NCBI GenBank assembly: GCA_041744215.1
Contig: JBGTLG010000030.1
Location: 98,971 to 162,970, forward strand
Reading direction: 5' to 3'
DNA: 64,000 bases
Source of the DNA: Fimbriimonadales bacterium
Lineage (GTDB): Bacteria > Armatimonadota > Fimbriimonadia > Fimbriimonadales > ATM1
Made by a program: the position numbers and the translations under genes. A model generated the notes under the pieces. That model was given only the letters and a program-made list of their open reading frames with translations, had not been told where the DNA came from and did no database searches. Positions 51,734 to 58,121 of this stretch are shown in pieces. The first letter of the stretch is position 1. Each line of letters begins with the position of its first letter.

Positions 51734-53785
51734 TCATCGCGGCGCGACCTTCGGCATTCCGTAGCGGCATTGCATACTGTCCCAGATGAGAATCGCGTTC
51801 TCGGCGCCATATGCGAGCCTGGATGGCTCATCTTCAATTACGAGTTGGCCTCCACGAATCCCGAAGTCACTGTCGTACGACGCCTCAAAGAGAGTTTGTC
51901 CTTGCGACCAATCCCCGAGCTTGATTGGATTGTCGGGATCAGACGTGCCGTTCGTAATGATCGTGAACGTACCAATGATCGCCAAGTAGAGATTCACCTT
52001 CTTCTTGTAAGAGTCACCTACACCACCAACGCCAAACGTGTTCTTCGTCCCCATGTTCTCATCCAGCCAGCATTTGGGCTTGCCTTCGCCCCGCCATGAG
52101 CAAAAGACCTTCCCTTCATGGTCCTTCAAATCTCCTGACGCATTCCAAGTGCATGTTGATCCCATCGCGGAATTCAAGCTCCACACGAGTTGGTCAACAG
52201 GCTTCATGCCAGGTTGTTCTCGATAGGACCAGGGGTCTCCAATCATATTCACTTGGAAGTCGGCGTTGAATGCCAACGAATCCCCGCCTGCAATCGTAAC
52301 GCCGATTTTTCCCGTCCACTTGCTCAGCCATCGGGAATTGCTTGGCCGTCCCTTATGAAACACCTTCACTTCGCCGGAGGGTCCAAGGTCGCTATCGGGA
52401 AGAAGGACAGTGATCTTGTCCGGCTCCCACTTATCTACAACTTGTGCGACATTAGCAATCTCGACTTTTCGATTCTCCTCTCCGGGGTCCTTTCCAAACG
52501 TTCCAATCAGCTCAATACGTCGCTGATAAGGCAACGGGTTGATAAACTTGATCGAAGGCGTCAGCAAGCCGAAGTTATCTCGGTTCGCTCTGAATATTGG
52601 ACTTGGGGTATGTTGCGCGCCCTTATACATAAAGACGGTCGGCCACAGCCGTTTTCTGTCCTTGAAGTCAGTGAATAAGCTCACCCAATCGAATGGTCGC
52701 TGAGCGACAACGTCCTCCGATGGAGGAATCAAATCATCATTCGTGCCGGTCATCCTGTCGAATAGCAACTTGATCCACTTATGGCAATCATTGTGTCCGA
52801 GGTCACTCATGCCGCAGTAGACAGAGGCATTGACGTCGGCCTGCGCGATAACGTCGCTCATCCGTGTTGTGGTGCATCCGTAGATAAGTACAAAGCTGTT
52901 CTTGCTGAACTTCCAAAAAGTTCGAATGAACTTCTTTGTAATGGTGAAGTAGCGCTTGTTGATCTCCTTGTTGTTGGCGTCCAAGTCGTAAAGCGCTTCA
53001 CAAGTTCCCAGATATCCCGCAGACATAAGACCGGCTGGCGATGACATCGGAGCCAGTTCCTCCATGTCCTTCTCTTTTGCCGCCGACCACTCTTCGCCGG
53101 ACACCAAGATGTACTCTGCTTCAAGCTTCTTGTCCTCACGATTCCACACGAGACCATTACCACCGTGACATTGCATATAAAAAACTCCGAGCCCGCGAAG
53201 ACTCATGAGTGTGGCTATGGATCCATCAACGCCAGGAGCGACCTTGTATCCCTTTCCTGTCAGAAGCCGCCGCACTTCATCGCAACTGTTACCAAACACT
53301 TTTCCAAGCGCATTGACGATTCGCGCATCCAAACTGTCCGGCAGATCGTTCGCTTCAAAGCGCTGCTGCGGCAGGCCTGGCGGCTCGGGGGCCGCTAACT
53401 CCAACGGTCGAACATAAGTCTCGGAAGACGCGCGAGGGCCATGTTCGCCGAGGAAACCAAGCGCCCGATCCTCATTCGGTGGCTGCACCGAAACGTTGCC
53501 AAGTATCATGTATGGCACGTGGTCACGGAAGACACATGCGATGTTTCCGTCCTCAGAGACTTCTGCGGTAAGGACTTCGGGAAGAGTCTTCGCAAACTCC
53601 GCAGTTTGAATCCTTCGCTGTGCGATTGGCAGCTGCACCAGCTCGTAGTACTTGTCTCGAATCGCGTCCATCGCTCTACCGCGAGTTGCCGGATTGAGCA
53701 GTTGGGCGTGGAGGGTTGCGAAGAAGGCTAAAGCGAAAACGACGAGCGCTGCGGCCCGAATGACACTAACTCTAATTGTTTGCAT
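51734..53785 (-). CDS. Exported protein with a putative caspase-like (clan CD) His/Cys domain and an IPT/TIG-like domain
   Basis: Signal peptide; VFYMQCHGG ... FVLIYGC; PSI...IELIGTFG...WEPDKITVLLP...SGEVKV...SN. Confidence 0.55.
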   Translation of the reverse strand: MQTIRVSVIRAAALVVFALAFFATLHAQLLNPATRGRAMDAIRDKYYELVQLPIAQRRIQTAEFAKTLPEVLTAEVSEDGNIACVFRDHVPYMILGNVSVQPPNEDRALGFLGEHGPRASSETYVRPLELAAPEPPGLPQQRFEANDLPDSLDARIVNALGKVFGNSCDEVRRLLTGKGYKVAPGVDGSIATLMSLRGLGVFYMQCHGGNGLVWNREDKKLEAEYILVSGEEWSAAKEKDMEELAPMSSPAGLMSAGYLGTCEALYDLDANNKEINKRYFTITKKFIRTFWKFSKNSFVLIYGCTTTRMSDVIAQADVNASVYCGMSDLGHNDCHKWIKLLFDRMTGTNDDLIPPSEDVVAQRPFDWVSLFTDFKDRKRLWPTVFMYKGAQHTPSPIFRANRDNFGLLTPSIKFINPLPYQRRIELIGTFGKDPGEENRKVEIANVAQVVDKWEPDKITVLLPDSDLGPSGEVKVFHKGRPSNSRWLSKWTGKIGVTIAGGDSLAFNADFQVNMIGDPWSYREQPGMKPVDQLVWSLNSAMGSTCTWNASGDLKDHEGKVFCSWRGEGKPKCWLDENMGTKNTFGVGGVGDSYKKKVNLYLAIIGTFTIITNGTSDPDNPIKLGDWSQGQTLFEASYDSDFGIRGGQLVIEDEPSRLAYGAENAILIWDSMQCRYGMPKVAPR

Positions 53786-53945: not shown

Positions 53946-54683
53946 CTACCCCCGCCAAAGAGTTTTGCCGCCTTGCTCGTCGGTTAGCAGCATCGAGCCG
54001 TCCTGTTGGTAGTAGTCCCACGCGGTGATCGACGAGTTTGTTAGCAGGATGAGCCGCCTGTCGTCACCAGCCCAGACGCCGACCGTGTCCACTTCCGTCC
54101 CTGAGTCCAGGCCAACCGCGGCTGTCCCGCCGATGGCCCTTCCCCATGATGAAAAGCTTCCGTCTGGCGCGAGGCGATACGTTCTTTCGATCGCCATCGA
54201 GAAACCTGCCATTGAATCGGTGTTCGACTCGGACCACTTCCAGTCGTGCGACAAGTTCTCTGGATTGCTGCGAGGCGCTGGCGCGAGCGATTTGCTAAGC
54301 GCAAGAAAGTCGTCGCGCTCGAAAGTTTCTCCGCCGGAGATTCCGACGAGTCCCGCTGCGAGGTCGCCTATCGAGCGCAGACTCCATGCGACGACCGATC
54401 CTGGTGTTTCCGGCGCACGCTCATAAAAGACGGCGACGCCGCCTGGGATCTCAACTCGTTCCTTACGAGGCCCGATTGCGCCGAGGCCCTCACGAAGCCA
54501 AGCCTCGTAGGAGTCCGCTACTTCCTCGGACGCCAGGTCTGCGCCTGGACCGTAGAGGTATGAGAGAAAGAAGACGTCGTTCGGTCGCTCTGGGCTTTGG
54601 ATCGCAAGAGACGCAGTGGTTTCGGTCCCCTGCAGGTGGAGCGGCACGGTTAGCGCAAGTCCGATCGGATTCGTGTATTCCAT
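53946..54683 (-). CDS. Hypothetical protein
   Basis: 245-aa ORF with GGAGG RBS; beta-rich C-terminal domain (YRLAPDGSFS...GVW). Confidence 0.7.
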   Translation of the reverse strand: MEYTNPIGLALTVPLHLQGTETTASLAIQSPERPNDVFFLSYLYGPGADLASEEVADSYEAWLREGLGAIGPRKERVEIPGGVAVFYERAPETPGSVVAWSLRSIGDLAAGLVGISGGETFERDDFLALSKSLAPAPRSNPENLSHDWKWSESNTDSMAGFSMAIERTYRLAPDGSFSSWGRAIGGTAAVGLDSGTEVDTVGVWAGDDRRLILLTNSSITAWDYYQQDGSMLLTDEQGGKTLWRG

Positions 54684-55172: not shown

Positions 55173-55263
55173 TGCTGGGCCAATTATAGTGCGGACTTGG
55201 GGCAAAAGCAAAGGCGCGATTCCCTGCTCGATTGGGTAGGCTTAATCTCACCAGAGGAATCAG

Positions 55264-55884
55264 TTGACACATTTGAGAGCTCTATTGTTCTGCGGTCTCG
55301 CAGTCGCGGCCGCAACGGCGAACTCACAGCAGGGTGAAGCTCGCTGCCCGTTGTGAGTCGCCGGGGGATACGGCGCCAGTTCGGCGACGGAGGCAAAGTG
55401 GCTTTTCAATACCGTTTACGCGCCGTCGACAGTAACGCGCGCGGAGTCTTTTCTTTGGTATCAGGCGGCTCCGAGATTGCAACTTGGACTCGCGTTTCTG
55501 TGGAAGCAGGCCGCTTTTCGCGCGCTTGCGAGTTGGCAAGCGATCCAGGAAACCGACCACATTCCAAGCGTTAGCCTCAGCGCTGGAATTCAAGGAATCG
55601 GCACAGGCAATCCGGGATTCTCGATAACTACTGAGAAGAACCTGCGGTTCGATGACGGCGGATTCATAAACGGCTTCGTGGGCCTTGGCTATCGAACGAA
55701 CGAATCGCACGTGCATCCGCTCGGAGGGTTTAAGTGGAGTCCAGACGGGAAGTTTTCGTTAGGATTTCAGCACGACGGACATGACGGGCATCCCTTTACG
55801 ACGTATTCGATCGAGAACTACGTCGTAGGCGTGTATCTGATCGGCGGAGATCGCCCCGCGCTTATGGCGGGATTCCGCTACTGA
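55264..55884 (+). CDS. Putative selenoprotein: signal peptide, CxxU motif (TGA at 55354-55356), outer-membrane beta-barrel-like domain
   Basis: AGAGGA RBS, TTG start, signal peptide, C-P-L-TGA, then an open frame to LMAGFRY-stop; hairpin directly after the TGA. Confidence 0.65.
55357..55388 (+). promoter_or_regulatory. Candidate bacterial SECIS hairpin
   Basis: GTCGCCG (55357-55363) pairs perfectly with CGGCGAC (55382-55388), immediately 3' of the in-frame TGA. Confidence 0.5.
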
Positions 55885-56120: not shown

Positions 56121-58121
56121 ATGGTCGACCAATCCAAGATTACCTCCGGCTTCGATCTGGAACTGCTACTCAGCGAGCGGTACATCCAGTACTTCCTGCT
56201 GACATCATTCGAGACGGGTTCGATGCCTTGGTATATGCAGGATACCGACCCCGACACGGGCGTGATCACGCACATCATGATCCATCCGCCGGTCGAGCTC
56301 GAGCAAAACCGGCTGTACGAGCCAAGAGACGATTTCGTGGCGCACCCGTTCCCCAACGAGGTGCCGATCGTCTTCACGAACCACGGTGATGCCTGCAAGG
56401 TCGAACTGCTGCCCGATGACCAGGAGGCGGACATTCGCGTCACCCTTATCGTCAGCGTGGTTGGTCCGCCGCTCCTGCCGGGCGGCAATCCATTGATCCT
56501 TACCGAACAGGACATGACTTTGGACGCAAAGTTCTTCATTGCCTCCGACATCGACGCCAACGGAACGCAGAAGGACGTGCGGTTCACCCTCGAGGTGGTC
56601 GATATCAACGGACCGTTCCTCGATAAAGCGAAGACTCTTAAGCGAGTTAAGGAAGAAGTCGATCGCGACATACCGCTGACCATATTCGGGGAAGACAGTT
56701 CGATCATGCAAATCGAATCTCAAAAGTTCTTTGCCGAGCAATCCGATGATCCTCCGACCTGTCTTGGTTTGTACGTCAATCTAAACCTCAAGAACGGCCC
56801 AGAGCCCGACGCTTTCTTTCCTGCGCGTGGTGACCTTGCGCAGGCGAAGAACTTTATGCCAAAGGGTCATCATTTGGCGTTCGGGTTCAGTGGCGATCTC
56901 TATCCGAGGCTCGGCAGCGATATCTTTCAGAGAATGGCATCCCCTAAAGAAGGAGGTGGCTTCTTCTATCCGCTCGATCCCGACAACCCGGGCATGGGCC
57001 ATATCAAATCTGCGGTCGTCTTTCCTCAAGCCAACGGCCAGCACGTTCCGCTCGGCACTGCCGCGACGCAATTCGACAACATCTTGAACATTCAGGTCAA
57101 GGGCGAATTGGATATCGACACCTTTTTCATGCCGGACTTCCGGATGACGATTAGCCTCGTACCCGTTATCGACAATGGAGTGCTTACCTTTCGCCCAAGG
57201 TTCGACTTGAACATTCCTGCAGCCGGCTGGCTGATCGTGGGGTCGGCTCTGCTGAGCTTCTTGACACTCAAGCTCGCCATTCCGTTGACTTTAGCCCTGC
57301 TGGCCGCCAAGGCGATTATCGAAGACCTGGGCGAGGAAATGGCAGTACCGCTAATCGAAGCTAAGCTTGAAGATGCATCGTTTGTCGATTCATTTCCAAA
57401 CAAGTTGCCCGTGGAGAAGCGCCACTGGGATCCTGCGTACACAACAGAGCACCAGATCGTCTCACTCGTGAAGGAAGTGCCGATCAACAACGAGGGACTC
57501 GCGTTTGCCGCCTTCGATTTGCGCATTGGCAAGGAGCCGAAGATTCTCAAGAATGCCGTCATTCGATCAGAAGTGCGGGATGATGCTGGAAACGTCTCCG
57601 GATTATTGTATCGGATCAATGATTGGAGCCGAGACTTCGAGAAGGAACTGGACCTAATCTTCCCTGCAACGGATCGCCTAGGCTTTGTTGAAATCCTACC
57701 GCCGCAAGGTGGTGTCGAGTCGTTCCGGGTGCACCTGACCGTTGATCAAGCCGTAGAGCGAATAAAGACCAAACGGCTTATCGACAAGATCGCCTACCGC
57801 CCATATAAGATCGATGAAGTGGAGAATCAGATCTATCAGATTCTGACCCTTTCTGACGTCGAGGCTGAGGAGATTCGGCAGCTGGCCGCTGCGCTATTGC
57901 GGCGCGATCTCGTTGCGACCAAGGACGCAGAGTTTCGTCAGCAAGCGCATGACCAGTTGTTGGCGGAACTGGGACGCGAGCCGACACCAGAGGAGGTTGG
58001 CGCGGTACGCAATATCTTGCTTGAAGCGGCGGTCGAGGCGTTGTTCAGCCGGAAGGCCATGCCTGTGATGAGCAAGCCGTTCAATCCGGTGAGTTCGCTA
58101 CCCGCGATTGTCATTTGGTAG
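56121..58121 (+). CDS. Hypothetical protein, probably 3'-truncated (the last ~27 codons are antisense to the neighbouring gene)
   Basis: 666-aa ORF with a central hydrophobic segment (GWLIVGSALLSFLTLKLAIPLTLALLAA); overlaps the convergent ORF by 184 nt. Confidence 0.7.
   Translation: MVDQSKITSGFDLELLLSERYIQYFLLTSFETGSMPWYMQDTDPDTGVITHIMIHPPVELEQNRLYEPRDDFVAHPFPNEVPIVFTNHGDACKVELLPDDQEADIRVTLIVSVVGPPLLPGGNPLILTEQDMTLDAKFFIASDIDANGTQKDVRFTLEVVDINGPFLDKAKTLKRVKEEVDRDIPLTIFGEDSSIMQIESQKFFAEQSDDPPTCLGLYVNLNLKNGPEPDAFFPARGDLAQAKNFMPKGHHLAFGFSGDLYPRLGSDIFQRMASPKEGGGFFYPLDPDNPGMGHIKSAVVFPQANGQHVPLGTAATQFDNILNIQVKGELDIDTFFMPDFRMTISLVPVIDNGVLTFRPRFDLNIPAAGWLIVGSALLSFLTLKLAIPLTLALLAAKAIIEDLGEEMAVPLIEAKLEDASFVDSFPNKLPVEKRHWDPAYTTEHQIVSLVKEVPINNEGLAFAAFDLRIGKEPKILKNAVIRSEVRDDAGNVSGLLYRINDWSRDFEKELDLIFPATDRLGFVEILPPQGGVESFRVHLTVDQAVERIKTKRLIDKIAYRPYKIDEVENQIYQILTLSDVEAEEIRQLAAALLRRDLVATKDAEFRQQAHDQLLAELGREPTPEEVGAVRNILLEAAVEALFSRKAMPVMSKPFNPVSSLPAIVIW

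Follow-up and report, generated by a model that had tools for sequence, protein, structure and literature searches.

A selenoprotein family of predicted small outer-membrane barrels in Armatimonadota, with a possible role in soft-metal handling

The window analyzed here, a 64,000-nucleotide stretch from a Fimbriimonadales bacterium of the phylum Armatimonadota (assembly GCA_041744215.1, contig JBGTLG010000030.1, positions 98,971 to 162,970; our contig C30 of a 2.68-Mb assembly in 42 contigs), carries at 55264-55884 (+) a reading frame that is interrupted once, by a TGA at 55354-55356. Comparison with related genomes indicates that this is almost certainly a real, intact gene containing selenocysteine (Sec), and the evidence strongly supports decoding of UGA 55354 as Sec by the SelB/tRNA-Sec system of the genome, guided by a hairpin at 55372-55388. 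Sec at this codon had been proposed in an initial annotation made from the DNA letters, and it is now backed by Sec/Cys pairing among homologues, a covarying hairpin, the presence of selA, selB, selD and tRNA-Sec, and conserved coding upstream of the TGA. We class the gene and its relatives as a new selenoprotein family, of known kinds and decoded by the ordinary bacterial Sec mechanism. Taken as a whole, and with its inferred function included, our best explanation is that of a Sec gene whose product is an outer-membrane barrel acting as a channel or acceptor for a thiophilic metal, which we regard as probable.

Selenocysteine at an in-frame TGA

The plain list of open reading frames (ORFs) holds just a 135-amino acid (aa) piece of the gene, at 55477-55884. 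Read upstream, the full frame contains every element that had been described for it: 206 sense codons including TGA 55354-55356, a TTG start at 55264, a Shine-Dalgarno-like AGAGGA 5 nucleotides (nt) ahead of it (55253-55258, +; read directly) and the TGA between CPL and VAGG. From the TTG to the internal TGA, the frame reads MTHLRALLFCGLAVAAATANSQQGEARCPL and continues with VAGGYG; its N-terminus reads MTHLRALLFCGLAVAAATANSQ, followed by QGEARCPL-TGA-VAGGYG, and the next in-frame stop comes only after LMAGFRY, as the terminal TGA at 55882-55884. Full-length homologues exist for this coding sequence. By eye, residues 1-21 (55264-55326, +) appear to form a signal peptide with a hydrophobic N-terminus and an A-x-S cleavage pattern, followed by a Gln conserved in the alignments; by the -3/-1 rule, cleavage would occur after A-N-S and leave Gln22 as the mature N-terminus. 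Six residues into the mature protein lies the motif C28-P29-L30-U31 (55345-55356, +), whose C28 and U31 are invariant in 24 aligned members.

Of 61 related genomes searched in six frames with the read-through protein, 29 gave matches, the best rows carrying one or two in-frame TGA codons; this count includes an unpublished genome (G011), on which no other result rests. The TGA column stays TGA in orthologues down to ~40% identity and in some homologues holds Cys, not Trp or Gly. The translated loci share a common architecture: a signal peptide, in most cases a Gln, and a few residues lead to a four-residue motif, which is followed by a Gly-rich stretch and a conserved body. Signal peptide, frame and motif are kept in homologues, as expected if the upstream segment is coding, and the combination of frame, motif and TGA goes beyond chance because all three recur in relatives.

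The motif reads C-P-L-U in the window protein and its closest relatives, U-P-[LIVM]-U, with two TGA codons, in other members, and C-P-I-C or C-P-L-C, with no TGA, in a few. Aligning with C-P-L-U are the CPLC members P0043, P0045, P0059, P0063 and L064 and the CPIC members P0048, P0042, L033 and L034, and those with P numbers are full-length Cys forms with signal peptides. A further subfamily comprises 177-aa paralogues that had only seemed free of TGA, their alignments having begun past a V-P-T-U-T-G-U-P-G-E-G motif, and a fourth group carries S-T-L-P-P-U-T-G-U. When 24 members from three subfamilies were aligned, the only invariant columns were the two motif positions and two glycines. Among the fetched loci, which are best-scoring matches plus hand picks rather than a random sample, a script count corrected by eye for nine regular-expression misses gave ~51 U-x-x-U, 17 C-x-x-U, one U-x-x-C and five C-x-x-C forms. 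Outside this tally stand one Cys form fused to YHS domains (L121) and two members, L124:266-976 (-) and L125:638-1321 (+), whose motif reads G-P-L-S, neither Cys nor Sec.

Two loci show unusual arrangements. At L092 (G354:C7, ~75819-77037), two tandem family genes lie behind a multi-YHS protein, the first with U-A-G-C, a rare order, and the second with C-P-L-U. The U-P-L-U member at L032 (G005:C61, ~1576-2217, +) is family-like to ~residue 144, beyond which the same frame runs on into a C-terminal part resembling thioredoxin/peroxiredoxin, a composite due to either a rearrangement or an assembly chimera.

The initial annotation had also placed a hairpin just 3' of the UGA. A hairpin of the selenocysteine insertion sequence (SECIS) type does exist there, at 55372-55388 (+), and it covaries; it is not the stem that had been named. 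We aligned 63 nt around the TGA, gap-free, from 15 Sec forms of the window's subfamily (subfamily A). In the helix formed by columns 31-36 and 42-47, 96.7% of cells are paired, compared with 77.0 +/- 2.8% in shuffled alignments, which reached the observed value in 0 of 500 cases, and 29-52% when one arm was slid. Four of the six pairs show compensatory changes, and RNAalifold predicts the same helix unaided. The loop reads (A/G)-G-U-N-C, with G and U invariant in the 15 Sec forms, and begins 21 nt past the UGA, or 30 nt past the first UGA in U-x-x-U forms. In the window, 55372-55377 pairs with 55383-55388 (GGCGCC and GGCGAC, with one G.A mismatch) around the loop AGUUC. The local minimum free energy (MFE) of the hairpin ranges from -8.0 to -14.6 kcal/mol across members and is -8.4 kcal/mol in the window copy. 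According to the legend of Fig. 2 in PMC13188914, the bacterial SECIS model comprises a stem of 4-16 bp, a loop of 3-9 nt with G in its first two positions, a distance of 16-37 nt from the UGA and an MFE <= -7.5 kcal/mol; the window hairpin, with its 6-bp stem (one mismatch), loop AGUUC, 21-nt spacing and -8.4 kcal/mol, falls within these ranges.

In the same line, 22 U-x-x-U-PGEG members carry an 8-bp hairpin at equal distance, mostly with a GGUUC loop and with many compensatory changes by eye. All five Cys forms of subfamily A, in turn, are without the hairpin, with 0-2 of 6 pairs in register and an MFE of -1.8 to -4.2 kcal/mol. Two observations speak against the assignment: L121, a Cys form of another subfamily, keeps five of six in-register pairs, and the window hairpin, besides its G.A mismatch, faces a competing stem of lower energy. 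The stem originally named, GTCGCCG/CGGCGAC (55357-55363 with 55382-55388, +), is present here as part of the minimum-energy fold of the window sequence and has its 3' arm in common with the conserved hairpin. It was rejected as the SECIS, being not conserved and absent in the closest orthologue, L022 (70% identity).

The SECIS loop also contributes to the protein. In subfamily A it encodes a Gly/Ser-Ser dipeptide 8-9 residues after Sec, written (G/A)GU-UCG in most members, and in the U-x-x-U-PGEG subfamilies mostly Gly-Ser, from GGU-UCG at the same distance after Sec. In these alignments, protein sequence and RNA structure constrain one another at the loop, a clear case of dual coding.

The genome holds the complete set of decoding genes that had been named for checking (selA, selB, selC and selD). 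Its tRNA-Sec (78.4 bits, anticodon TCA) lies on another contig than the window, in which an ARAGORN scan found no tRNA; SelA (471 bits), SelB (356 bits) and SelD (339 bits), like tRNA-Sec, match above curated cut-offs. The selD gene (G000:C16:75837-76805 (-), locus L018) carries one in-frame TGA, and the selenophosphate synthetase is probably itself a selenoprotein. Reassignment of TGA under another genetic code was considered and rejected: neither selA nor selB has a TGA within its frame and the gene under study terminates with one, which makes TGA a stop except where it is locally recoded, and Cys takes its place in homologues. As to a sequencing error, three DNA runs of one study contain the stretch, with no RNA run among those listed. 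Run X1 is a possible source of the assembly and was hence not counted as independent; in run X3, from a different sample (depth 2), a 151-nt contig spans 55325-55475 without a difference, TGA included. Cross-genome conservation is the stronger argument against such an error.

Distribution, database entries and predicted fold

In a profile search of 401 genomes sampled across the phylum, 81 genomes, spread over 43 of 208 genera, had the family, and most matches that reached the N-terminal part carried one or two TGA codons. The window's genome holds three family copies, and several paralogues are often present elsewhere. Its two paralogues (G000:C15:776-1378 (+) and C15:1418-2032 (-), locus L050) lie tail to tail at the start of their contig and adjoin an IS200-like transposase (PF01797). 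They represent a V-P-T-U-T-G-U and a G-G-G-U-P-L-U form; the latter, C15:1418-2032, has an internal TAG and may be a pseudogene.

An exhaustive HMMER search of 1.84 billion representatives returned only 37 relatives, including the full-length Cys members P0043 and P0045 (CPLC) and P0048 and P0042 (CPIC), and a collection of 5.8 billion proteins gave 41 matches with a single sequence and 153 with a profile, the best 120 of which are described here. All entries among the matches listed are unnamed or labelled "hypothetical protein" and have no Pfam domains, and the named relatives among them belong to Fimbriimonadaceae, Fimbriimonadales or Armatimonadota. Their lengths range from 116 to 198 aa, and all except two rows of the profile search, which gave no BLASTP alignment, span 33-87% of the query, so that nearly all among the matches listed are cut at the TGA; none of the listed entries has the signal peptide or the motif. 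Pfam and NCBIfam scans of the read-through protein (U as C) and of the 135-aa fragment gave no family at E up to 1; in the window protein the Pfam scan found no YHS domain (PF04945), and the NCBIfam selenoprotein models (NF041115, NF041027, NF049945, NF041384 and others) gave no match at the same threshold. A PDB sequence search with the family profile yielded noise only (E 1.6). Table 1 of a 2026 review (PMC13188914) contains no such family, and full-text searches of the literature turned up no paper on one, with the supplements of selenoproteome surveys as places where it could still be listed.

AlphaFold2, run on the 24-sequence alignment, produced a model with a mean predicted local distance difference test (pLDDT) score of 84.2 and a predicted template modelling (pTM) score of 0.77, in which the signal peptide is a helix and residues 46-205 (55399-55878, +) contain twelve strands. 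Within the barrel part, pLDDT is 83-94, except for one 10-residue block at 66. Foldseek and VIA-align returned exclusively outer-membrane barrels as top matches, the best all 12-stranded. KdgM led with Z 17.1 and a root-mean-square deviation (rmsd) of 2.1 over 154 aligned residues, alongside VhGalP (Z 16.8), the COG4313 channel (Z 16.5), FapF (Z 16-17), autotransporter barrels (Z 13-17), NanC (Z 15), a de novo designed 12-strand barrel (Z 13.5) and PcoB (7pge; Z 10.3, rmsd 3.8, 153 residues). The genome encodes an Omp85/BamA homologue (92.2 bits vs a cut-off of 24). Most family members end in F, Y or W, subfamily B in Arg or His; the window protein ends, by eye, in Tyr, namely Tyr206 directly before the terminal TGA (55879-55884, +). 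On the strength of the model, residues 46-205 very probably form a 12-strand outer-membrane barrel with very short loops, in agreement with the barrel that the initial annotation had read from the sequence.

The His clusters noted at that time, ESHVHP and QHDGHDGHP, were located at residues 147-152 and 169-177, like the terminal aromatic residue at Tyr206. Conserved segments (all on the + strand) comprise a G-T-G-N-P-G turn between strands 5 and 6 (residues 113-118; 55600-55617), N-E-x-H-x-H at the turn into strand 8 (residues 146-151; 55699-55716) and, at the turn between strands 9 and 10, Q-H-D-G-H-D-G-H (residues 169-176; 55768-55791), of which Q-x-D-G-H (169-173) is conserved, with G172 invariant among the 24 aligned members. 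If the termini face the periplasm, as described for other barrels (PMC9210255), GTGNPG, NExHxH and QxDGH would occupy three neighbouring external turns.

Genomic context and candidate functions

In the explanation that we prefer, the mature protein opens with a short C28-P-L-U31 tail, which would start in the periplasm like the barrel termini, and the Cys/Sec pair, Sec/Sec in most relatives, would be a soft-metal ligand or a redox site. The conserved His/Glu/Asp cluster (NExHxH, QxDGH, TGNPG) would sit at the barrel's other, external mouth. In the outer membrane, the protein would act as a channel or acceptor that takes a thiophilic metal, copper being the likeliest, with transport directed in or out, and in many relatives a dedicated periplasmic YHS-plus-TlpA-like reductase would keep the pair reduced. 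Its mode of action would be much as in PcoB/CopB with its disordered His/Met-rich N-terminal domain. Judged by gene context, a part in soft-metal handling is slightly favoured for the family, and copper specifically is a more tentative proposal.

The context comes from 40 family loci in other genomes, whose neighbours were scanned with Pfam within ~3.5 kb; it counts against the resulting numbers that the loci were hand-picked from the best-scoring matches, not drawn at random, and that kin among them are not independent. In 16 of the 40, a thioredoxin-fold Redoxin/AhpC-TSA protein directly adjoins the barrel gene, 15 times downstream (usually a few bases away) and once upstream (L120). Aligned with one another, these 16 neighbours have in common a signal peptide, a 3-Cys YHS-like module and a W-C-x-P-C motif; the single one scanned against NCBIfam, from L093, matched ResA and TlpA best, below cut-offs. 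YHS-only proteins occur in three loci: L085 and L092 (both with several repeats) and L099 (fused in frame to the barrel). P1B ATPases were found in four loci, with three ATPases passing the copper-translocating and two the Cd/Zn NCBIfam model, and HMA-domain proteins in two. ArsR-type HTH_20 regulators were present in four loci (L100, L107, L109 and L112); all three that were scanned, L100 excluded, pass the ArsR/SmtB NCBIfam model. One locus has a MerR-type regulator. RND pumps, TolC-like genes and the MerR-type regulator were discarded as metal-specific evidence and not counted, the RND and MerR matches lying below the curated cut-offs of metal-specific models.

The YHS link extends to gene fusions. 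In L099 and L120, inspection by eye and the scan of neighbours place a YHS-like domain on the N-terminal side of a U-x-x-U barrel. The 411-aa TGA-free ORF of L121 joins a signal peptide, one or more YHS domains (PF04945, E 1e-15), C-A-G-C and the barrel; it lies at L121:691-1923 (+) in genome G025, and similar frames of 405-500 aa were seen in G034, G040, G054, G315, G329 and G406. As the five genomes checked contain just 3-6 YHS loci each, chance adjacency is unlikely. YHS domains have been proposed to be metal, probably copper, modules (PMC4626032). A fusion of a MerR-type regulator with a Thioredoxin_3 domain, at L086:6609-7262 (-) in genome G006, ends at a TGA, after which the frame reads G-C-G-R-S-C-G-C and then a stop; this may be a Sec read-through with a Cys-rich tail.

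Several points weigh against the proposed metal role. No metal-related neighbour of the window copy was found within ~8 kb, where its neighbours are a PF06983 protein and proteins without a family. Among 12 sampled subfamily-A loci, just three (L085, L086 and L092) have a metal-related neighbour, so that most of the context argument comes from paralogous subfamilies. The metal capture or uptake suggested by the initial annotation thus draws on neighbourhoods and fusions in relatives and has no counterpart at the window locus itself. With two of the neighbouring ATPases assigned to the Zn/Cd/Pb type, copper is not the sole candidate. The G-P-L-S members L124 and L125 have neither Cys nor Sec, and the barrel can do something without the motif. 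In the model, tail residues 21-40 are of low confidence (pLDDT 56-65). Structural alignments starting at model residues 24-31 hint that the model may put the tail inside the lumen, and both the lumen lining and the position of the His cluster are deduced from the order of the strands only. As for the immediate surroundings of the gene, none of the three sizeable flanking ORFs at 51734-53785 (-), 53946-54683 (-) and 56121-58121 (+), which encode 683, 245 and 666 aa, matches a Pfam family at E up to 1e-4.

The context also bears on the best-surviving rival, which accepts the Sec barrel as real and takes its tail for a redox catalyst. The protein would then be an outer-membrane-anchored thiol/selenol oxidoreductase, fed by the TlpA-like reductase and acting in the periplasm or at the surface to reduce, for example, peroxides, disulfides or chalcogen oxyanions. 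The commonest neighbour is a thioredoxin-fold ResA/TlpA-like protein with W-C-x-P-C, C-x-x-U and U-x-x-C are described as typical selenoprotein redox motifs (PMC13188914), and within 3.5 kb a DsrE-like gene occurs in L119 and a sulfide-dehydrogenase-like flavoprotein in L097. However, a conserved 3-Cys YHS-like metal module is part of the reductase itself, YHS domains occur fused to barrels, and heavy-metal ATPases, HMA proteins and regulators of the ArsR/SmtB or MerR type are repeatedly encoded in the vicinity; moreover, the motif sits on a Gly-rich tail without a surrounding thioredoxin fold. We judge this rival unlikely, yet worth keeping in mind.

The structural matches, in turn, would suit a general small-solute porin of the KdgM/NanC type, in which the Sec tail is a plug or gate, closing for example on oxidation, with no metal specificity. 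KdgM, VhGalP and NanC are the best matches (Z 15-17), alignments to the plug- or linker-bearing barrels (FapF, COG4313, autotransporter) start at model residues 24-31, as they would with a tail in the lumen, and members without Cys or Sec exist. This reading, however, leaves the metal-related context and the YHS fusions unexplained; conservation in the family is highest at the motif positions, the expense of one or two Sec residues points to chemistry rather than a steric plug, and a Pfam scan at E up to 1 gave no hit that would relate the protein to KdgM by sequence. We consider it improbable.

That the protein contains no Sec at all, the TGA being a true stop (in a pseudogene, or between a leader ORF and the 135-aa ORF), a sequencing error or a reassigned codon, could appeal to the gene callers of every source, which truncate the family at the TGA, and to the internal TAG of paralogue C15:1418-2032, but is contradicted by the comparative data to the point of being hardly credible: ahead of the TGA, different families of the phylum have kept the frame, the signal peptide and the motif, homologues have Cys rather than Trp or Gly in its column, the hairpin covaries, selA and selB without internal TGA and the TGA-terminated gene leave no room for reassignment, and the codon is present in the contig of a second sample (X3).

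Known systems and significance

The nearest functional analogue of the window protein, viewed as a putative metal channel or acceptor, is PcoB, a 12-stranded barrel whose loops are short and whose disordered, His/Met-rich N-terminal domain is described as required for copper resistance (PMC9210255, PMC12509749). Like PcoB/CopB (7pge), the window protein would, by its model, be a 12-stranded outer-membrane barrel with short loops and periplasmic termini; it has an N-terminal unstructured extension with putative metal ligands, and some relatives are encoded beside copper-handling genes. Unlike PcoB/CopB, its tail is short and carries Cys/Sec or Sec/Sec instead of His/Met, the usual partner of the family is a YHS-plus-TlpA-like reductase and not a multicopper oxidase, and no sequence relation was detected (no Pfam family, CopB included, at E up to 1), so that the likeness is one of fold only, at Z 10.3. 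The closest fold is that of KdgM/NanC (4pr7, 4fqe, 2wjr), with Z 17.1, similar size and minimal loops, but at 6-9% identity, with no Pfam match and an empty PDB profile search. KdgM-type porins carry acidic sugars and are without a Cys/Sec tail, and the fold that they have in common with the window protein does not show a common function.

The replacement of Cys by Sec in soft-metal motifs has precedents in Table 1 of PMC13188914, namely a UxxU metal-binding protein of HMA fold (NF041115), a MerT-like protein, the SO_0444 Cu/Zn efflux transporter and a YHS-domain protein (NF041384). The U-x-x-U spacing is identical to that of NF041115; these proteins, however, have other folds and compartments, the window motif being on the tail of an outer-membrane barrel. 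The same table lists Sec-containing outer-membrane proteins, a GSU2204/MtrB-PioB-type barrel (NF041027) and an FCYXU-type TonB-dependent receptor (NF049945). Both are, like the predicted product here, Sec-containing outer-membrane beta-barrels, but they are large and of other families, whereas the window barrel is minimal (~160 residues) and has its Sec at the mature N-terminus. The initial annotation had expected an unusual selenoprotein class; the family matches none of these models, and outer-membrane selenoproteins as such have precedent.

A parallel to the putative reductase partner is the TlpA-ScoI periplasmic relay, in which a TlpA-like thioredoxin-fold reductase is reportedly encoded with a copper-binding client carrying a Cys motif. 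By analogy, the TlpA-like reductase encoded beside the barrel gene would keep its client's motif reduced for copper binding. In contrast to the relay, the client would here be the Sec-bearing tail of an outer-membrane barrel, the reductase has an extra 3-Cys YHS-like module, and the interaction is putative.

Extended to the phylum, these observations could describe minimal outer-membrane channels in which the selenolates of U-x-x-U or C-x-x-U tails form a periplasmic soft-metal acceptor or gate, re-reduced by YHS-plus-TlpA proteins, with one SECIS serving two UGAs 9 nt apart; this broader picture is speculative, and more so than the case for copper. If true, it would mean a Sec-dependent step in metal traffic across the outer membrane.

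Together, these findings add a selenoprotein family that is common in one phylum and usually carries two Sec residues. They also illustrate, through database entries shortened to "hypothetical proteins", that Sec genes with an N-terminal UGA go unrecognised, and that a SECIS loop, in writing the Gly/Ser-Ser dipeptide of subfamily A, serves two codes at once. Finally, Sec is placed on the tail of a very small predicted outer-membrane barrel that is linked, by neighbourhood or fusion, to YHS domains, a TlpA-like reductase and heavy-metal efflux, a linkage that yields a testable model of what Sec may do in the metal handling of the cell envelope.

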